DNA of 64,000 nucleotides from a virus: positions 32,001 to 96,000 of IMG/VR virus record IMGVR_UViG_3300034685_000168; one strand, written 5' to 3'. The position numbers were made by a program, and so were the translations under genes. Positions within the stretch are counted from its first letter, which is position 1; each line of letters opens with the position of its first letter. Shown here piece after piece: positions 20,944 to 30,681 of this stretch. The notes under the pieces are model-generated. The model was not told the DNA's origin, did no database searches, and was given only the letters and a program-made list of their open reading frames with translations.

Positions 20944-23553
20944 TTATTCCTTATCTTCTACTTTATCTATAGGTAGAATTTCTTTTATTTGTTGTATTTG
21001 TTTATAAATTTTAGCAGTTACATTAACTGGTGTATGAACAACTTCCATATCAATAAAATCTAGATTTACTGATTTATTAAATATAATATCTCTGTTTTTG
21101 ATATGTTCATAAAAATAAAAATGTATTTTAGTAGTTTCATTAGAAAATGTTTTTGGTATTTCTATTTCACCATTTATTAAATCCTCTATTAAATTTTGTG
21201 TATAGATAGAATACAAATGATATTCTTCAGGTATAAGAAGTATTTCTTTTTGAGTAAGTCCTATATGTCCATTAAGAAATCTCATAACATCAAGCATTAT
21301 TTGTATATGTTCTAATAATTGAAATTGTGGTATTTGATCTAATATATATTTATTAAATCTTGTGAATAAACTATATAAAGTTCCTGGTTTAGATTTATCT
21401 GATTCATTATTACTTATGTAATTAGTATATACATTAAAATTATTAATTGATTTTCCTCTTATATATAAATCAGACAATCCTTTAAAAAATGATTCAGCAA
21501 AAGGTAATATATCTTTATTTTCATATATGAGAAAATCTTTATGTTTAAATAAACTTTTACCAGATAAAGTGTATACTTCTATATCGTTTTTTGTTATATC
21601 ATCATAATTAATATATTCTATTGTATATATACATAATTGATTAAAACACAATTTACCATTTAAATATAATGGTTCAATTTTATAATCAATTCCTTCTGTT
21701 AAATAATACCCATTAAAAAATACTATATTTTCATTAATATTTATAACTGGTATATTTTCATTAAATATTAAATTTATAACTAATGCTTGGTTATTAATTA
21801 ATTTATTTTCTAAATTATATTTATTATAAGTTATGTTCCCATTATCTATTTCATATTTGGGATATATAACAAATTCATTATCTACTTCTGTGTTTTTAAA
21901 TGTTAATCTTTTATTTTCTTCATCTATATTTTCAACAAATAAAATATCAGATATATTATTTATTTTATCCCAATAAAAATTATAAATTTTATGATCCATT
22001 CCATTAGATTTAAATATAGGGAAATTAATTCTTTTATATATAACAAAATCAGTATAATTTATATCTATTGACATATCATCTATAATAGGTTTTTTATATA
22101 ATCCATTATTGGGAATATGTTCTAATAATTTTATTTCATGTATTAAATTATCTCCGTTATAATCTTCATTAAAATTTATACTAACCATACCAGTTTCTGT
22201 ATTATCTTCATATGTAAAATTATCATTATTTATTTTAACACCATCTTTAAATATAAGAGGAATTGTTTTAATATCTTGCCATAACAAATCTTTACGTAAC
22301 CATATTTCAGTAAAAGTTGTATTTATTTTTAAATTATATTTATTTATAGCAATTAACGATAGTGTTTTAAACAACCCTAATATATTAACATAAGTATTAA
22401 AATTATGATCTTTTGAAGAAAAATCATATAAAGTTTTTAAATAATTTGTATTCTCTAAAAAAGAAGCTTTCCAGAAATTAGGTTTATTAATTCCTATATC
22501 ATTAAAAAAACTATCCTCACACAAGATTTCTATTATATTAGAATCAGATAAAGAATATAATTTATTTATATAGTATTTATCTTGTTCCATGTAATTATCG
22601 TTATCTTCAGGAAAACGAATATGAATCTCTATGTATACATCAGTTGTATTTAATATAGATTTACCAAATGTAATTAAATATTCAGGTATACTAAAATCAT
22701 TATGAGTAACTTGTTTAGGTGGTTTGTTATATATAGCATCATTAACTATTATACCTTTATGATTATCTTTTCTTCTTACATAAATCATTAATGAGTTAAG
22801 AGTTATTATTTTATTATCTTTATTTAATTCTTTTGGTATATGTATTAAAAATCTATTTTCTAATAAATCATCTTCATAATATCTACCTTGATTAATATCT
22901 GTTATATCTATTTTACATTTATTTTTTATATCTTCATCTATAAGAATTTCTATAAAGTCACCATTTTTTATTTCTGATGTAGTCATACTATCAACTAAAT
23001 AACCATTATGAAAACATATATTATTTTTTATTTTGTTAATAATATTATTTTTATTAGAAGAACTTGTAATAAAATAGTTTTCTACAAATAAATTAGTATT
23101 TTTAACTATATCTTTCCATGTTTTTAAATATATATCTAAGCTTTTTATATTAAGTTTTTTATAAGCTTTTTTATTTATTATTATGACAAAATATTCATCA
23201 AGTAAATTAAAATTTAAATAAAAATTATCTTTTGGAATCGATTTGCCTTCTCTACTTATTAATTCACAATATCGTCTTTTATCATTAATAAGTTCATTAC
23301 CAGAATACCATTTATCTTCATAATTAAAAGATAAATCGAATAATAAATTTTTATCAAAATAAAATACATAATAAGGACCGTTATCTGGTAATTTATGGTT
23401 TTTACCAAATAGATAAAAATAATTAGTTTGTGATCTTGTATGTAAATATGATAATTTTATATTATTCCTATAATCTTGATGTTCTTCATTCCATATATTC
23501 TGTGTAACATATGATTGTAAATACCTAAGAACTCGTTGGTTATTGAAATCCAT
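20944..23553 (-). CDS. Virion structural (baseplate-type) protein, phiKZ gp27-like by position
   Basis: N-terminal NIWxExxQD, QVTHNDFSIP, FFNGYYLTEGIDY; synteny. Confidence 0.6.
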   Translation of the reverse strand: MDFNNQRVLRYLQSYVTQNIWNEEHQDYRNNIKLSYLHTRSQTNYFYLFGKNHKLPDNGPYYVFYFDKNLLFDLSFNYEDKWYSGNELINDKRRYCELISREGKSIPKDNFYLNFNLLDEYFVIIINKKAYKKLNIKSLDIYLKTWKDIVKNTNLFVENYFITSSSNKNNIINKIKNNICFHNGYLVDSMTTSEIKNGDFIEILIDEDIKNKCKIDITDINQGRYYEDDLLENRFLIHIPKELNKDNKIITLNSLMIYVRRKDNHKGIIVNDAIYNKPPKQVTHNDFSIPEYLITFGKSILNTTDVYIEIHIRFPEDNDNYMEQDKYYINKLYSLSDSNIIEILCEDSFFNDIGINKPNFWKASFLENTNYLKTLYDFSSKDHNFNTYVNILGLFKTLSLIAINKYNLKINTTFTEIWLRKDLLWQDIKTIPLIFKDGVKINNDNFTYEDNTETGMVSINFNEDYNGDNLIHEIKLLEHIPNNGLYKKPIIDDMSIDINYTDFVIYKRINFPIFKSNGMDHKIYNFYWDKINNISDILFVENIDEENKRLTFKNTEVDNEFVIYPKYEIDNGNITYNKYNLENKLINNQALVINLIFNENIPVININENIVFFNGYYLTEGIDYKIEPLYLNGKLCFNQLCIYTIEYINYDDITKNDIEVYTLSGKSLFKHKDFLIYENKDILPFAESFFKGLSDLYIRGKSINNFNVYTNYISNNESDKSKPGTLYSLFTRFNKYILDQIPQFQLLEHIQIMLDVMRFLNGHIGLTQKEILLIPEEYHLYSIYTQNLIEDLINGEIEIPKTFSNETTKIHFYFYEHIKNRDIIFNKSVNLDFIDMEVVHTPVNVTAKIYKQIQQIKEILPIDKVEDKE

Positions 23554-23557
23554 ATTT

Positions 23558-24568
23558 TTATATTCCTTCTAAAGTAGAAAGAAACAATCTTGATTTTAAT
23601 AATGAAGATATTAATTCTTCTACATCTGACATTAATTTAAAAGTATTAAGTGGCTTTCTATGCCAATCTTTATTACCACCAACTATCTTTAATAAATGAC
23701 TAACCCAATATGGTGGATATTCTATGGCTATCATTAATTCTGTACTGTTATTGTGGGATATACTAAAACTTCTCATTAGATAATATTCATTAAATCTATC
23801 TTTTAGTATAGGAATTAATTTAATTAATCTTTTACAAAACTCGACAATGGTCATTGGTTCTGTAATTTTATAATCTAATAGAAATTCATTTAATATATTT
23901 TCCATTTCTATTTTAGATAAATTAATTTTTAATTGTGTTAAAACGAAAGGAGAAAAAAAATCATCTTGATCAAATTTATACAATCTAGTAAAGTAAAACC
24001 AAGCAAATAACATCCGAACCATTTCAATATCTCTAACATTATTAAGTAAACGTATAGTTGATGTAATAATCATATTATAGGATTGAACTATTGTTTTTAA
24101 AATACTTTTTTCTAACCACATAGGAATATTTTTATTATTTAAAAAAGTTTCATATGATAGAAAAAGTGTATATTTCATAATTAGTTCATGAAAAGCATCG
24201 AGATTATTTATCTCAACATCATCGTCACTAAATTTTTTCTTTTTAATAAAAGGTGTAATATTAACAATAACTTTATTATTATGTATTATAGGAATATCAG
24301 AGATATTAAAAACATCAGGAATACTATCAGAGTTTATATTAGATAAATCAATTAATTCAAATAAACCAGTTAAATCATTTTGTACTACATAATTAGTTAT
24401 GACTTTAGCTGGATTTTCAACTAGTGTTTTTTTCTTAAAGAAAATATTTTTATTTCTTGTGTTTAAAACACATTCATTATGCTTTTTTAAGAATATAATT
24501 GCTTTATTAGTTTGTTCTTTAACGTTATGGATTTTAGTAAATGATGTATTTTCAAATTTATTTTTCAT
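23558..24568 (-). CDS. Virion protein, phiKZ gp28-like by position
   Basis: AIEYPPYW motif; divergent from the sheath gene. Confidence 0.55.
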   Translation of the reverse strand: MKNKFENTSFTKIHNVKEQTNKAIIFLKKHNECVLNTRNKNIFFKKKTLVENPAKVITNYVVQNDLTGLFELIDLSNINSDSIPDVFNISDIPIIHNNKVIVNITPFIKKKKFSDDDVEINNLDAFHELIMKYTLFLSYETFLNNKNIPMWLEKSILKTIVQSYNMIITSTIRLLNNVRDIEMVRMLFAWFYFTRLYKFDQDDFFSPFVLTQLKINLSKIEMENILNEFLLDYKITEPMTIVEFCKRLIKLIPILKDRFNEYYLMRSFSISHNNSTELMIAIEYPPYWVSHLLKIVGGNKDWHRKPLNTFKLMSDVEELISSLLKSRLFLSTLEGI

Positions 24569-24659
24569 TTGTAAGCTCCTATGCTTAATTAAAATATGTT
24601 TAAATATATTATTTATTAATTTACTTATAAAATTATAAAAATATATAAGGAGAATAATA

Positions 24660-26354
24660 ATGCCTACTTATTACCACCCAGGTTATCTTATCAATACCAT
24701 TGATACTGGATTATATGTACCTGTTGAAGAAATCGTAAGATCTCTTCATAGACCATGTGTTTTTATGTTTACTCAATCTGGACCTTATAACAAACCAGTT
24801 TGGGTTAATAACATCACCGAAGCTAAACGTATATTTGGTGAAGAAACTTTCAATAAGTTTAATTCTGAATATTTTAGTAAAGAATCTAGATTAGCTGAAA
24901 CCTTTTTCCCTCATCATGGTTGTTATATAGTACGACTATTACCAACAGATGATTTTCAGGTTAGTGGAGAACAACCAGAAAGTGCTAGAGTAATTCTTGC
25001 ACTAGATATAACTGAATCAAAATTAACTAATTACCAACGTAATTTAGATGGATCATTTGTTCTAGATGGTGCTGGTAATAAAGTCGTTGATCCTGATACA
25101 CCTTCTGTAGAAGGATTCAAATTCTTTTTTCATTATAAATATGTGTCTGATGCAGATTGGACTACCAAAACTACACAAGAACTATTAACTAAATCTACAC
25201 CTACTCCTGGTACTACATCATATAACATTATGTTAATTAATGATATTTACCCAGGTAAAGATGGTAATAGATTTGGATTTAATTTCTATAGAGATATTGA
25301 AGCTTATGACTCTAATTTCATAGATGAAATAAAAGCTATGATGTACACATTTAAACCTAAGAAAAAGGTTTATAATAATGTACAAGTTACTCCTATGTTA
25401 GATAAATATAATAGTGTTTTTAATAATTTCAGTTTAAAAGAAAATACTATTGATCCCAATACTAATATAGAACTAAGTATTGATAAAGTACTTGATAATA
25501 AATATGATAATTTTAATTATGAGTTTGTAGTTAATACTGAATTAATAAAAGAAATAGGTAATCTATATTTAGCTAAAAGACAAGTTATAGATGGAACAGA
25601 AACACCTGGGTATATCGATGGTGGAATACTTGTAGATGAGCCGTTTATGATAGATTTTATTAATTTCAAAGATTTTAATGGTAATCCACTTATTGGTACT
25701 GAAAAAGAAGCTATAGAAGATCAACCTGGACTTAACCCCATTACTAAAGATACTATCATTTATCTTGATGGTGGTAAAGATGGTAATAAAACAGATACTA
25801 CTAAAGAATTTCTTATTAGTGAATTCTGCAAAGCTACATTATTCCCTGATATACTAAATAAAGCTAAATACCCTATTACTCATATTTATGATATGGGTTA
25901 TACAATAGATACTAAAAAGAAAATGCTTGATTTTATGGCAGTGCGTGATGACGTAAGTGTTACAACAGTAACTCAGGTATTTAGTATTGTTGCCAAAATG
26001 GCAATGCCAGTTATTGTTGATGTTGATAGTGCTGCTAATATTACTGATGTTAAATTAGGAATCGCCGCACCCGAATTTATTAATGGCGATGGAACTGTTA
26101 CAAGTATTTACTTAGAATTAGAAAATACAGATACATCTACATTATTATACGATGGTCCAATAGAGTTTAGTACATTAATACCAACTAAAGAACTAGAACA
26201 AGCATCTGGTGATTATTGGATTCCTATGATAGATCTTACATTAAACCCTGGTATTGGTACTGGAAATTTCCGTGCTAGAATTAAATTTACTGATAACAAC
26301 GGTGTTGAATCTGATTTCTCTCTATGGAAATCTTTTAGTGTTGTTGGTGTTTAG
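24660..26354 (+). CDS. Tail sheath protein, N-terminal part, fused to a C-terminal Ig/FN3-like domain
   Basis: IFGEETF, YPGKDGN, LDGGKDG, YDMGYTIDTKK..FMAVRDD sheath segments; last ~120 aa end in RARIKFTDNNGVESDFS. Confidence 0.8.
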   Translation: MPTYYHPGYLINTIDTGLYVPVEEIVRSLHRPCVFMFTQSGPYNKPVWVNNITEAKRIFGEETFNKFNSEYFSKESRLAETFFPHHGCYIVRLLPTDDFQVSGEQPESARVILALDITESKLTNYQRNLDGSFVLDGAGNKVVDPDTPSVEGFKFFFHYKYVSDADWTTKTTQELLTKSTPTPGTTSYNIMLINDIYPGKDGNRFGFNFYRDIEAYDSNFIDEIKAMMYTFKPKKKVYNNVQVTPMLDKYNSVFNNFSLKENTIDPNTNIELSIDKVLDNKYDNFNYEFVVNTELIKEIGNLYLAKRQVIDGTETPGYIDGGILVDEPFMIDFINFKDFNGNPLIGTEKEAIEDQPGLNPITKDTIIYLDGGKDGNKTDTTKEFLISEFCKATLFPDILNKAKYPITHIYDMGYTIDTKKKMLDFMAVRDDVSVTTVTQVFSIVAKMAMPVIVDVDSAANITDVKLGIAAPEFINGDGTVTSIYLELENTDTSTLLYDGPIEFSTLIPTKELEQASGDYWIPMIDLTLNPGIGTGNFRARIKFTDNNGVESDFSLWKSFSVVGV

Positions 26355-26384
26355 TAAAAATAACAATTAAGGAGATAGTTTAAA

Positions 26385-27095
26385 ATGACTGTTAAAATAA
26401 ATAACGCATATGAAGATGAGTCTGTTGCAATATCTCTAGCTGCTTATGGCAGACTCATTCCTGAATCAGTAGAAAAAGGAACTGAATCTTGTAGATTTAG
26501 TATTTTTGTTCAATGTGGAAAAACCCATGATAATATTATGATGCCAGCTGGACTTCGGATAGCACAAATGCGTGCAGAAAAGATGGGAACCCAATCTCTT
26601 AGAGGAGATTTTGGTGGAAGACCTGATAGTGAATGTCATCTGTTTAAAGAACTTAGTTATATTCCAGCAGGTGATGAAAGCAAAGCAAGATTGTGGGCCG
26701 CAGGTGCTAATTATCTTAGTTCTTGTAATGAAAAAGATGTTTATTATGAAGGACTTAAATCAGGGTATGCACACCAAAGTTCTGCATTAAGTGATTTATA
26801 TTTTTGTGATACATTATGTTATGTTAAACAAGCGGTTGGAGTATCATACTCTATGTTTGCTGGTGTTAGATGGCCTTTTAATATACTTAAAGATAAAATA
26901 ACTAAAGACCTTACTACTAGATTAAATACTCTATTCAATGGTAAATATGTATTTTCTGTTGATGTTTATCAGACTGTAGAAGAACAGAAAAAAGGTTATG
27001 AAACACACGTAGCTATTAATATAGAATCTCCTAATCAAAATCTTAGGTGGAATGTTGATATAAACTGCTCAAGAGAAGGTTATGTTGCAGAATAA
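26385..27095 (+). CDS. Tail sheath protein, C-terminal part (separate gene)
   Basis: PESVEKGTESCR, LWAAGANY, SALS motifs of the phiKZ-type sheath C-half; own AAGGAG RBS. Confidence 0.8.
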   Translation: MTVKINNAYEDESVAISLAAYGRLIPESVEKGTESCRFSIFVQCGKTHDNIMMPAGLRIAQMRAEKMGTQSLRGDFGGRPDSECHLFKELSYIPAGDESKARLWAAGANYLSSCNEKDVYYEGLKSGYAHQSSALSDLYFCDTLCYVKQAVGVSYSMFAGVRWPFNILKDKITKDLTTRLNTLFNGKYVFSVDVYQTVEEQKKGYETHVAINIESPNQNLRWNVDINCSREGYVAE

Positions 27096-27123
27096 TCTTT
27101 AACAATAAAAGGATAAAATAATT

Positions 27124-27951
27124 ATGAGTGATGCTATTTTAAACGAAGTAGAAAGTATCTACTACGGACGAAATAAAAAAATATCCAATATAAACAATGG
27201 TGGTTTGGCTGGTATTGCAGCCCAAGTTAAAAATCTAGATGCAGCAGCTTCTTTGATTTTACCCCCAGCGGTACCAATTGTTATACATGTACCAACTATG
27301 TATGATCCTTGGCCAGACCTTCAACAATTCATTACAGATCTTGTAGAAACTCATGCGACTTCTATTACTGGAGTTGATGTTGGATATACAACAGAAACTG
27401 ATGATAGACCTGGTGGAGCAGATGGACAAACTATAGCCACACCAACACAGACCAAACGAAAAGCTGTTAGTCCGAGTATGACATTTCCTGAACTTAATGG
27501 GTCACCTATTTGGACAATATTAACTCAATGGCAACATGATATACAACACCCTGATACTAATATCTTCTGTGCTAGAATGACTAATCCCCCACCATTTATT
27601 CCATCGAGTTATTCTATGTCATTATTAATGATACAATTTGGTGTATCTCACAGACCAGATGATATTCTTATAGCTAATTATATCACTAATATATTTCCAA
27701 CTGATGTTGGAGATTATGGTTTAGAGATGAATATTGGTGCAAGTAAAAGAATGGAAAGAACTGTTCAATTTACTGGTTATGGTATACAAAATAATATGGT
27801 TACAGAATTGGCTTATGAAATAGCTTCTAAACTACAAATCCATAAAGGAGATTTTAACAGATTATCTCCTGAATATAATAAAGTTATGGATTCTATATCT
27901 AAATCAGGTATAGTCAGACAGTTAGATAGTATTCCTAAAATACAAGAGTAA
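27124..27951 (+). CDS. Tail tube protein (phiKZ gp30-like)
   Basis: Directly follows sheath; LVETHATSITG, NIFP, VQFTG motifs. Confidence 0.75.
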   Translation: MSDAILNEVESIYYGRNKKISNINNGGLAGIAAQVKNLDAAASLILPPAVPIVIHVPTMYDPWPDLQQFITDLVETHATSITGVDVGYTTETDDRPGGADGQTIATPTQTKRKAVSPSMTFPELNGSPIWTILTQWQHDIQHPDTNIFCARMTNPPPFIPSSYSMSLLMIQFGVSHRPDDILIANYITNIFPTDVGDYGLEMNIGASKRMERTVQFTGYGIQNNMVTELAYEIASKLQIHKGDFNRLSPEYNKVMDSISKSGIVRQLDSIPKIQE

Positions 27952-27967
27952 TATAAGTTAAATGTTA

Positions 27968-28001
27968 TTATCTATGGTCCTGTAAAAAGGACCATAGATA
28001 A
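27968..28001. terminator. Bidirectional hairpin terminator
   Basis: TTATCTATGGTCCT...AGGACCATAGATAA. Confidence 0.8.
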
Positions 28002-28014
28002 AACACTTTTTATA

Positions 28015-30681
28015 TTACCATCTACTTCCACCAGAATCACTAGATGTATCAGCTGTTGCATCATCTAGTTTCTTTTTCCAATCACTTATACCTTGAGTTA
28101 TATTACGTAACCGTTTATATAGATCTATAGACTCATCTTGATCAAATGCATCTATATCAGATTCCATAATATTAGCCATTCCATTAGTAGCTACAAAATT
28201 CTTAATTAATCGTCGTATAGCAGTTGCTTTCATAGCAGGTAAACTATTACGTAATTTATCATCTTCTATCGGTAATAGTTCTTGACTAATAACTTTATCC
28301 ATATATTTTTCACATAGATCAATAAATGAATCTAATTCATCTATTCTATTTTTATCTATTACTAAATTGGGTTTAGGTAAAAATGCAGTTACATTTTCAA
28401 TAATTTCATAAAGAATATCAACAAGTTCTTTTTTCTCACCTGTTATTATTCCATCTTCTATATTAATAACTCCACCAACAAATAAATTATTAGATTTTTT
28501 ATCATCAGGTTCTTCAGTTTTATACTTATCTTTTACACTATCTGGATCATCCTTTTTTTTACTAAAAAACTGCTTAGTGATGTATGCATCACCCTTTAAG
28601 ATTTCGAGGATTCTACGCTGAATTACTTCCGAGTATATAAGCTCATTTTGAGCTAATTTAGAACATAACGAAATTATCTTATTTTGTATTATTTTTACAA
28701 TATTAGCTAAAAAGAGATTATTAGACAATATAGATGTTGCTAGTTCATTTTCTCCAACAGCATTCAATGAACTATAAGGGACATTTAAATAAGCCAATAC
28801 TTGTTTATCTAATTCTTCTATTAAATTATCTACATCCCCTCTACTTCTTGTAGAACTTGATTCCATTCTAGTTTCAGATAAACCTTCTAATCCTTGAATA
28901 TTTTTAGGTATTATTTTAATGTGTCTATCTATTATATCTTTACCTATATCAGAATAATGAATATTAGGTTTAAAATTACGTTTATCATTAACAACTCTTC
29001 TAATATCTTCCATTATTTCTTCTATATTAGTTGTTCCTTCAGGAATATCAACTTCTATAGTTCTACTATCCATAGCATTTTCCATAGTCTCTAATACTTT
29101 AGAAACTAATAATGTATTTTTCATTGCTATTAAAAGTTTAGCACCATCTTCTAACTTAGATTTACCAGTACCATCTTCTCTATAATCAAAAGCAAAATAA
29201 GTTATTAAATTTTCAGGAACAAATATTAATCTAACTTTTCTTTCGTGTAAAAAATTTTGAAATATAGTAGAAGCTATATTATTATAAATATTGATATTAA
29301 TATTGTTTAAGCCCATATCAGATAGTTTAGTTTCTATCATATATTTCAATGCGATATTAAATATAGTAGAAGCATATTTTTGTTTTTGTTTATTATTTAA
29401 TTTATTTAACTCTGTCATATTAGGAGAAAATACTTCTTTTAAAATATGGGTTGTATTACTAAAATCTGAAGTATTATTTGCACCATTTGTAATATCATTA
29501 AATAGTGGATTTATATTTTCATCTGTTACAACAAAATACCCTGCTTTTTCATTAGAACCAGGGATAGTTATAGGAATAACATTTTTAGATTTCAATATAA
29601 TAAGAAATGGATGATCTCCTTTAACAAGATTTGTATTGTTATCAACTTTATAAATAGAATTATCTACTCCTATAAATTGATCATTAAATGTTTTATTAAT
29701 TCTATCCATTGCTTTCTTGACATTTTTCTTAGACTTTTCTAATACTCTAAAATTATCTGATATAATTACATTGTTATCTTCACTCATTTTGTTCAATATA
29801 GGTTTTGCTATTTTTTTTATATTTTCTATATTAAACATTTTTTTATTTTCTTTTAATTCTTTATTCGTAAATTCATTAGTAAATTCATTAGTAATTGATT
29901 GATTTAAAACTTTTAAAAACTTAGAATCGTTTTTATCTTCTTGTATTATATTTTTAAAATTATTTAATATCAAACTATTAGAATTATTATTAACTGAAAA
30001 TATATTTTTTTTAAGTAGAGAATCTATATCTTCATTATCTAAATTACTATTATATATATCGTCTCTAATAAATACTTCTTTATTATTTTGATTCTTAACC
30101 ACTAATTTAATATCTTCAGTTAATTGATACAATATTCTATTATTAGAATTCGGTATTGTTAATATAGGTACTGCACCAGAACTCATAATTGCTTCATAAA
30201 TCCAATCTGGAAGTAATGTATTTAGTTTTCTATATTTACACATATGTTCTGTTAATAAATCAGATAATGCTTTATTAGTATCATCTGTTATATTGGGATG
30301 ATTGATTATAAATCGTAACGAATCAGTTTGTAAATCATCTGGTGATAATATAGTAGAAACTAATAATTTACCAGCTTGTTGTAAATTAGGTGATAATTCT
30401 AATAAAGATTTAGTATCTTCTATTTTATCAGAATTATCTTTTGTTAATGTTTCTAAATAAGATTTAATATCATTTAAACGAACATCTTGTTTAATATCTT
30501 TATCAGGAGATAACATATATCTAACATGTTCTTTTTTATACATATCAGAAAAATAATTATCTTTTTTAAATTTATTTTTCTTATCTTGTTCATGATATGG
30601 TGCTTCTGCTTGAGAAAATAAAGAAGTAAATGCTCGTTTTATTTCTATTAAAATCTTATTTTTATTTTTTTCTTCTTCCAT
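28015..30681 (-). CDS. Portal protein (phiKZ gp129-like)
   Basis: LVSTILSPDDL, G.F...DE, YFAFDYREDGTGKS; ~890 aa. Confidence 0.7.
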   Translation of the reverse strand: MEEEKNKNKILIEIKRAFTSLFSQAEAPYHEQDKKNKFKKDNYFSDMYKKEHVRYMLSPDKDIKQDVRLNDIKSYLETLTKDNSDKIEDTKSLLELSPNLQQAGKLLVSTILSPDDLQTDSLRFIINHPNITDDTNKALSDLLTEHMCKYRKLNTLLPDWIYEAIMSSGAVPILTIPNSNNRILYQLTEDIKLVVKNQNNKEVFIRDDIYNSNLDNEDIDSLLKKNIFSVNNNSNSLILNNFKNIIQEDKNDSKFLKVLNQSITNEFTNEFTNKELKENKKMFNIENIKKIAKPILNKMSEDNNVIISDNFRVLEKSKKNVKKAMDRINKTFNDQFIGVDNSIYKVDNNTNLVKGDHPFLIILKSKNVIPITIPGSNEKAGYFVVTDENINPLFNDITNGANNTSDFSNTTHILKEVFSPNMTELNKLNNKQKQKYASTIFNIALKYMIETKLSDMGLNNININIYNNIASTIFQNFLHERKVRLIFVPENLITYFAFDYREDGTGKSKLEDGAKLLIAMKNTLLVSKVLETMENAMDSRTIEVDIPEGTTNIEEIMEDIRRVVNDKRNFKPNIHYSDIGKDIIDRHIKIIPKNIQGLEGLSETRMESSSTRSRGDVDNLIEELDKQVLAYLNVPYSSLNAVGENELATSILSNNLFLANIVKIIQNKIISLCSKLAQNELIYSEVIQRRILEILKGDAYITKQFFSKKKDDPDSVKDKYKTEEPDDKKSNNLFVGGVINIEDGIITGEKKELVDILYEIIENVTAFLPKPNLVIDKNRIDELDSFIDLCEKYMDKVISQELLPIEDDKLRNSLPAMKATAIRRLIKNFVATNGMANIMESDIDAFDQDESIDLYKRLRNITQGISDWKKKLDDATADTSSDSGGSRW

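Follow-up and report, generated by a model that had tools for sequence, protein, structure and literature searches.

A phiKZ-type tail sheath gene divided in two, with a putative FN3/Ig-like domain at the break, in an uncultured giant phage

The building blocks of phage contractile tail sheaths are regarded as single chains and, to our knowledge, type VI secretion systems (T6SS) provide the only textbook case of a two-chain sheath, one in which the break lies near the N-terminus and the small subunit comes first. There, TssB and TssC (VipA and VipB) supply a sheath protomer made of two polypeptides that jointly form the conserved fold (PMC9230969), and the same source, which presents TssB/TssC as a two-protein sheath, never applies the word 'split' to the sheaths of phages. 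The virion of the jumbo Pseudomonas phage PaBG contains two sheath gene products (Kurochkina et al. 2018, cited in PMC7412058) and, according to the citing passage, these are full-length paralogues, 38% identical, which arose by duplication. Additional Ig-like domains are common on phage sheaths, where roles in adhesion or in stability have been proposed (Evseev et al. 2022, PMC9230969), and Ig-like domains have been described on phage surfaces (Fraser et al. 2006, as cited in PMC9230969). We report here the analysis of a sheath locus from an uncultured, very AT-rich, phiKZ-like giant phage. The locus lies in a stretch of 64,000 nucleotides (nt), hereafter the window, which comprises bases 32001-96000 of the 107,638-bp IMG/VR viral contig IMGVR_UViG_3300034685_000168, a contig judged about 45% complete; the guanine-plus-cytosine (GC) content of the window is 23.6%.

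Our reading of this locus, to which we give a probability of roughly 0.7, is that a phiKZ-type sheath gene has undergone a real fission, that its products form a protomer of two chains and that the first of these carries an exposed FN3/Ig-like decoration on its C-terminus. The two open reading frames (ORFs) concerned, ORF1 and ORF2, lie on the + strand in one shared frame and are arranged as follows.

24647..24652, + strand: AAGGAG ribosome-binding site of ORF1, 7 nt 5' of the ATG, read from the sequence
24660-26354, + strand: ORF1, 564 amino acids
24660..25985, + strand: ORF1 residues 1-442, matching the N-terminal two thirds of a phiKZ-type sheath (phrog_3242, PF20961, 36za_cA)
25980..25992, + strand: first copy of a 13-bp repeat (TTTAGTATTGTTG), at the border of sheath and extra domain
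25986..26351, + strand: ORF1 residues 443-564, the extra domain, a predicted FN3/Ig-like beta-sandwich with no family match
26334..26346, + strand: second copy of the 13-bp repeat (TTTAGTGTTGTTG), at the end of the extra domain
26352..26384, + strand: gene junction, made up of the TAG stop of ORF1 and a 30-nt spacer
26385-27095, + strand: ORF2, 236 amino acids, matching the C-terminal third of the sheath (inner C-terminal domain and C-terminal extension)

The junction reads TAG TAA AAA TAA CAA TTA AGG AGA TAG TTT AAA and holds four in-frame stop codons of two kinds (TAG and TAA, at 26352, 26355, 26361 and 26376), while ORF2 has an AAGGAG of its own at 26369-26374, 10 nt 5' of its ATG. An initial annotation of this stretch had described a sheath lying in two same-frame ORFs, the second of them behind four stops and with its own ribosome-binding site, and both the coordinates and the letters of that description were confirmed.

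The complementarity of the two ORFs is seen against the PHROG tail-sheath profile phrog_3242, which has 692 positions. Positions 29-449 of the profile correspond to ORF1 residues 24-442 (E 4.9e-48) and positions 453-687 to ORF2 residues 6-232 (E 4.4e-24), such that the two ORFs cover the profile in complementary fashion, with neither overlap nor gap. The solved structures give the same picture: ORF1 residues 27-441 align to residues 28-443 of PDB entry 36za chain cA, a tail sheath of 680 residues, and ORF2 residues 7-133 align both to residues 449-581 of this chain and to residues 472-616 of phiKZ gp29. The break point, between the equivalents of 36za_cA residues 443 and 449, is a clean one with respect to the solved sheaths. 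We take 36za chain cA to be the sheath of phage Goslar, and both 36za and 11ei ('Tail sheath protein gp29') to represent Goslar gp218. In the cultured phage Phabio, a single annotated sheath gene contains the tblastn matches of both ORF1 and ORF2, with 24 nt between them. A Pfam scan yielded PF20961 (phiKZ_gp29PR) as the sole match for ORF1, in residues 185-375 (35.2 bits against a cut-off of 26), nothing for ORF2, and no match to TssB or TssC, and ORF2 scored 264.6 bits against a profile built from the C-terminal parts of 35 single-chain sheaths. These comparisons confirm ORF1 and ORF2 as two complementary pieces of one phiKZ-type tail sheath, and bear out the initial expectation that ORF2 would align to the C-terminal domains of the sheath. 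By analogy with phiKZ gp29, ORF1 residues 1-442 would comprise the N-terminal extension, the inner N-terminal domain and the outer, gp29PR-type region. The locus shares with phiKZ-type sheaths the profile matches of the N-terminal and of the C-terminal portions and the tube gene directly downstream, and departs from them in the trait of a single polypeptide of about 640-720 residues, having instead two ORFs with four stops between them. The sheath residues of the two ORFs add up to 442 + 236 = 678, which lies inside the 640-720 norm of the single-chain relatives, with nothing missing; residues 443-564 of ORF1 are a net addition.

That the added stretch is not itself sheath was part of the initial annotation and was borne out by three comparisons. 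Against ORF2 the BLASTP E-value is 27, hhalign against a 38-row sheath alignment gives a probability of 0.6%, and the score against the C-terminal profile of the 35 single-chain sheaths is -2.5 bits, a value that 305 of 728 scored shuffles equalled or exceeded. By these measures residues 443-564 are not sheath. The same results bear on another proposal, in which the extra domain arose by tandem duplication of the first part of the C-terminal sheath domain and then degenerated, as might be suspected from a MAFFT alignment, in which D456, E472, G476, N536 and W556 were forced onto conserved C-terminal columns, and from a BLAST alignment with the sheath of Burkholderia phage SURPRISE13 that ran through residue 562, with D..S, PE and G.T motifs at roughly similar spacing. 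The BLASTP, hhalign and profile scores, the last no better than those of shuffled sequences, led us to reject such a duplication, which we consider highly improbable; moreover, the model of the extra domain is an all-beta sandwich that spans the whole stretch, whereas the first 120 residues of ORF2 appear, by eye, to be a mixture of helices and strands.

The arrangement recurs outside this contig. In JGI and Logan assemblies we found six further variants of ORF1, forming one cluster, of 564 or 565 amino acids and 84-85% identical, and further variants of ORF2, namely two full-length proteins of 236 amino acids, 98% identical, and a fragment of 185 amino acids. The longest contigs on which the ORF1 and ORF2 variants occur pair in size (6904 and 21702), which suggests that the two genes share contigs in these relatives also. 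Scans of viral and metagenome contigs for the DNA of the relatives found none. Since the arrangement of 564 or 565 and 236 residues recurs in other assemblies, the split is, as judged from the assembled sequences, no assembly error, and here too the initial annotation, which had listed misassembly among the outcomes that would refute it, stands. A broken sheath gene, be it a pseudogene or an artefact of assembly, in a phage that is either defective or relies on another sheath gene encoded on the missing half of its genome, seems to us scarcely credible. The incompleteness of the contig lends it some room, as do two other short sheath entries (P0123 and P0031, considered below) that look like artefacts of frameshift or contig end. 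Against it stand the recurrence of the layout in several independent assemblies, the apparently strong constraint on both halves (ORF2 being 98% identical), the ribosome-binding site and ATG of ORF2 placed right behind the last stop, and the lack of a paralogue of either part on the 107-kb contig.

The DNA of the extra domain has the character of coding sequence. Its codon preference, 0.365, equals that of the sheath part, its GC content at third codon positions is 0.148 as compared to 0.133-0.167 in the flanking segments, and it has no in-frame stops, whereas the two alternative frames hold 9 and 17; a run of 122 open codons would arise by chance at this base composition with a probability of about 2e-5. 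Judged from these statistics, residues 443-564 are clearly coding. This matters for the idea that a fused polypeptide is still made, be it that translation bypasses or hops across the 33-nt gap, that the stops are read through, or that an intron or intein is taken out. In favour of this idea, the ORFs share a frame, GTT closes the coding part of ORF1 and recurs as codon 3 of ORF2, and the gap contains an element resembling a Shine-Dalgarno sequence, features with a superficial likeness to the bypass of T4 gene 60. With four stops of two kinds in the way, neither simple read-through nor the reassignment of a stop codon can account for a fused product. The pair of take-off and landing sites is not conserved, because five of the six variants end in ...DVQ and ORF2, which starts MTVKINN, has no Gln codon among its first 13, and a canonical ribosome-binding site and ATG stand before ORF2. 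An intron or intein was likewise rejected: no Rfam intron family matches at E up to 1, the frame is broken by the four stops, and the codon use of the insert is normal, with full coding character. We consider that a fused product is very unlikely indeed.

Two features beyond ORF2 complete the gene cluster.

27124-27951, + strand: tail tube gene, third of the operon (Pfam PF23806 Phage_TTP_14, E 3.2e-27)
27968-28001, + strand: 14-bp perfect hairpin terminator, 3' of the tube gene, closing the sheath-sheath-tube unit

No terminator-like site was found between ORF1 and ORF2, the first being the hairpin after the tube gene and, because of this, ORF1, ORF2 and the tube gene look like a single transcription unit. 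The hairpin itself sits between convergent genes and is the source of a spurious, sub-threshold match to the Rfam Histone3 stem-loop (20.7 bits against a gathering score of 34).

The initial annotation had spoken of a heterodimeric sheath. When ORF1 and ORF2, with an alignment for each, were folded together, a single protomer was predicted with an interaction prediction score from aligned errors (ipSAE) of 0.84, the best control giving 0.00; 58 of 80 solved complexes attain this mark, as do 2 of 110 mismatched pairs, counts that hold only roughly here because our own alignments were used. The co-folding runs share at least 95% of their contacts and the predicted local distance difference test (pLDDT) value of the partner is at least 87. 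Residues 26-32, 66-86 and 401-443 of ORF1 are placed in contact with residues 3-72 and 141-156 of ORF2, strand 430-441 of the former pairing with strand 37-44 of the latter, and no ORF1 residue beyond 443 takes part, which leaves the extra domain outside the interface. A fold of full-length ORF1 from a 7-row alignment had a mean pLDDT of 32.9 and was not used. The co-folding supports, without proving it, the binding of two chains that rebuild one protomer, and the heterodimer of the initial annotation stands as a prediction of this kind. In phiKZ, the N- and C-terminal domains and both extensions lie in the inner region of the sheath, and the tail has 44 hexameric rings (PMC13250141). By analogy, the break here would fall between the two inner domains, and the extra domain would be present in a few hundred copies per tail.

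The mechanism that we envisage is as follows. Three co-transcribed genes, each with its own ribosome-binding site, would provide the N-terminal part of the sheath with the extra domain (ORF1), the C-terminal part of the sheath (ORF2) and the tail tube. ORF1 would contribute the N-terminal extension, the inner N-terminal domain and the outer region, and ORF2 the inner C-terminal domain and the C-terminal extension; the chains would pair non-covalently, chiefly through the two strands named above, and the ordinary protomer so rebuilt would then polymerise around the tube. The break would lie in a short loop, the length of which varies among the single-chain relatives, and the new, free C-terminus of ORF1 would bear a beta-sandwich of about 120 residues and FN3/Ig-like fold, one per protomer, giving the few hundred copies mentioned if the tail resembles that of phiKZ with its 44 rings. 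The domain may then act as an exposed decoration that binds weakly to glycans on surfaces or in the environment.

As to the nature of this domain, residues 443-564 have no Pfam or PHROG match at E up to 10, fn3, Big_2 and similar families included. The single-sequence AlphaFold2 model is all-beta, with seven strands, and has a predicted template modelling score (pTM) of 0.63. A structure search with this model through 48,161 representative PDB chains was headed by FN3 domains, the best being 8oe4_D (Z 8.9, root-mean-square deviation (rmsd) 2.9 A, 98 residues aligned), followed by 6mfa_A (Z 8.8, rmsd 2.4 A, 88 aligned) and including the FN3 domain of the phage lambda tail-tip chain 8iyk_J (Z 8.5, rmsd 3.4 A, 95 aligned); the top 36 entries have Z-scores of 8.0-8.9, near background level. 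Matches in a protein atlas gave weak Ig-like leads, at 0.86 or less. The extra domain is likely to be an FN3/Ig-like beta-sandwich as a fold class and no more than this, the assignment being confined to the class because the Z-scores are near background and the Foldseek E-values weak. The Ig/FN3-like domain of the initial annotation finds support in the seven-strand, all-beta model and its FN3 top matches, tempered by the moderate confidence of that model and by the lack of a match to a sequence family. No donor of the domain was found elsewhere on the 107-kb contig, nor, at word-based sensitivity, did a search of 5.8 billion proteins of 310-987 amino acids return anything outside its own clade.

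Comparison amongst the relatives reveals where the locus is changing. Identity to the window protein is 91-92% for the N-terminal sheath part (94% if residues 155-185 are left out), 98% for ORF2 and 60% for the extra domain and, between two close relatives (P0002 and P0007), the sheath part is 99.3% and the extra domain 87.7% identical. The extra domain nevertheless keeps its length and its hydrophobic pattern across the relatives, its changes clustering at residues 457-466, 496-516 and 526-536, of which the second coincides in part with a loop that is modelled at low confidence (residues 510-519). This pattern of divergence fits a translated, folded and exposed domain under relaxed or diversifying selection. 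A separate observation concerns ORF1 residues 155-185 (window 25122-25214), just before the gp29PR region at 185-375, which show 58% identity among the relatives as against 94% for the rest of the N-terminal part; these residues, which fall in the N-terminal third of the protein, are as variable as the extra domain and might form another exposed hot spot at the surface of the tail.

It is because the extra domain changes far faster than the sheath core that we favour an exposed decoration as its most likely role; the 1:1 assembly of the chains, the outward display of the predicted domain and its binding, or adhesin, function are what we infer. The two-chain sheath could also be real and the domain not an adhesin but a cement or an aid to assembly that touches the neighbouring protomers, or else a near-neutral passenger. 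Virion stabilisation is indeed listed as an alternative to adhesion for the additional domains of sheaths (Evseev et al. 2022, PMC9230969), the loop emerges from the inner region of the sheath, where neighbours are close (phiKZ, PMC13250141), and the extra domain matches no ligand-binding family. A cement contact would be expected to be conserved, whereas the extra domain is the part that changes fastest (60% as against 92-98%, and 87.7% as against 99.3%), and does so in clusters, one of them over the low-confidence loop. On balance we hold a role other than adhesion to be unlikely. A more far-reaching version of the decorated two-chain sheath, in which the protomer has become an obligate heterodimer through fission in the inner-domain loop, independently of TssB/TssC, the break is kept for the display of a hypervariable, FN3-like binding domain and the sheath doubles as an adhesion surface, we put forward only tentatively, as a possibility that is somewhat more probably wrong than right.

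How unusual the arrangement is can be gauged from an exhaustive HMMER search of 1.84 billion representative proteins, which returned 469 homologues of ORF1. The best 150 of these 469 were viewed; they are, with few exceptions, single chains of about 640-720 amino acids or longer, and none of the 150 aligns to ORF1 past about residue 483. The closest single-chain relative among the matches listed (P0012, 696 amino acids, from another metagenome) is 30-35% identical to the sheath part of ORF1 and 59% identical to ORF2. Across 35 single-chain relatives, the site of the break corresponds to a loop of 10-34 residues, 11 in most and 16-34 in several, which is flanked by two conserved motifs, (S/T)TQ on one side and N..ED.S on the other. 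Because the loop varies in length among these relatives, it is likely to be a permissive site, at which fission and the gain of a domain occurred in one narrow lineage, as far as the alignments allow us to judge. The longest loop, of 34 residues, belongs to P0012, the closest relative, and expansion of the loop in its branch may have come before fission. Two candidates for further split sheaths, both from other metagenomes, were set aside: P0123 (525 amino acids) is no longer sheath-like past the conserved motif, as would be seen after a frameshift, and P0031 (448 amino acids) ends inside the same variable loop and looks truncated. Either may reflect faulty assembly or else another break at this site. 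Phrase searches of the literature, in which journal coverage was partial, brought up only the paralogous pair of PaBG and papers on the T6SS or on contractile injection systems, and nothing on phage sheaths divided into complementary halves, and no earlier description of a split sheath with an extra domain was found for the phiKZ-like group.

The initial annotation had further noted that a 13-bp direct repeat brackets the extra domain and had suggested from this that the domain could be swapped. Both copies exist, at 25980 and 26334, with one mismatch between them. Repeat pairs of this kind at a spacing of 100-600 nt are common at a GC content of 23.6%, there being 346 in the window and 8 within the region, and at about 1.3% of positions one finds such a repeat no more than 10 nt away whose partner follows 324-384 nt downstream, which makes the bracketing only weakly unusual. 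The second copy is apparently not conserved, being absent at the protein level from five of the six related variants, since these end in ...FNVSDVQ as against ...FSVVGV in the window. Recombination between the copies would, moreover, delete the domain yet leave the gene split. The repeat is probably a matter of chance or a decaying trace and no swapping device, to judge from its frequency and its apparent lack of conservation, and the notion of a swappable cassette is not supported.

Several considerations weigh against a real fission with a displayed FN3/Ig-like domain. The whole case is computed from metagenome sequence and, with the contig representing about 45% of the genome, a second and intact sheath gene may exist elsewhere. 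All of the variants belong to one narrow clade, at about 85% identity, and so provide little evolutionary depth. The model of the extra domain is of moderate confidence (mean pLDDT 64.3), its best Z-score of 8.9 barely exceeds the 7-8 that are common for unrelated models, and in Foldseek searches of the PDB and BFVD no E-value came down to 0.001, the best being 0.004. The result of the co-folding may arise because the model has memorised the solved single-chain sheaths and, as such sheaths of this family have been solved, may demonstrate only a likeness to them. Finally, the break-site loop exits the inner region of the sheath, and the outward direction of a domain of about 120 residues is something that we infer.

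The surroundings of the locus are those of the phiKZ group. The neighbours on the minus strand, at 20944-24568 and 28015-30681, match the phiKZ-group families phrog_3184 (of unknown function) and phrog_3004 (virion structural protein), with the exception of an ORF of 336 amino acids at 23558-24568, for which there was no PHROG match. The gene order is that of SURPRISE13, with two genes on the minus strand, the sheath, the tube and a further minus-strand gene; in SURPRISE13 the sheath is followed by a 'virion structural protein', just as sheath is followed by tube in the window. A blastn comparison of window positions 24000-28000 with cultured phages gave no match.

If our reading is correct, the fold of the sheath tolerates a chain break between the inner N-terminal and C-terminal domains, and the break marks a permissive site for the attachment of a whole extra domain. 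Such a site would be of use in the engineering of tails and tailocins as scaffolds for display, and the locus would offer insight into the folding and assembly of sheath subunits, with the practical limit that the phage is uncultured and its sequence comes from metagenome contigs alone.

Set beside the known systems, the locus is closest to the single-chain sheaths of the phiKZ type (phiKZ gp29 in PDB entry 9xpf, 36za, 11ei, PHROG 3242 and PF20961), with which it shares family, domain order and total sheath length, as well as the tube gene directly after the sheath and, with SURPRISE13, the two minus-strand genes upstream. It differs from them in that their one chain of about 640-720 amino acids is here broken, and 122 extra residues are carried on the first piece. 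With TssB/TssC it would have in common the use of two chains per protomer of a contractile sheath, the pairing here being predicted by the co-folding; in contrast to that system, there is no Pfam match to its proteins and the break lies two thirds along the chain, and the fission is independent of the T6SS, having taken place within a phage lineage. PaBG likewise has two sheath products, though these are paralogues and not complementary halves as here. The Ig-like domains described by Evseev et al. are, as here, beta-sandwich additions to a conserved sheath core, but they lie within the chain, whereas the predicted domain of this phage sits on a free C-terminus made by the splitting of the gene, at a loop of the inner region.

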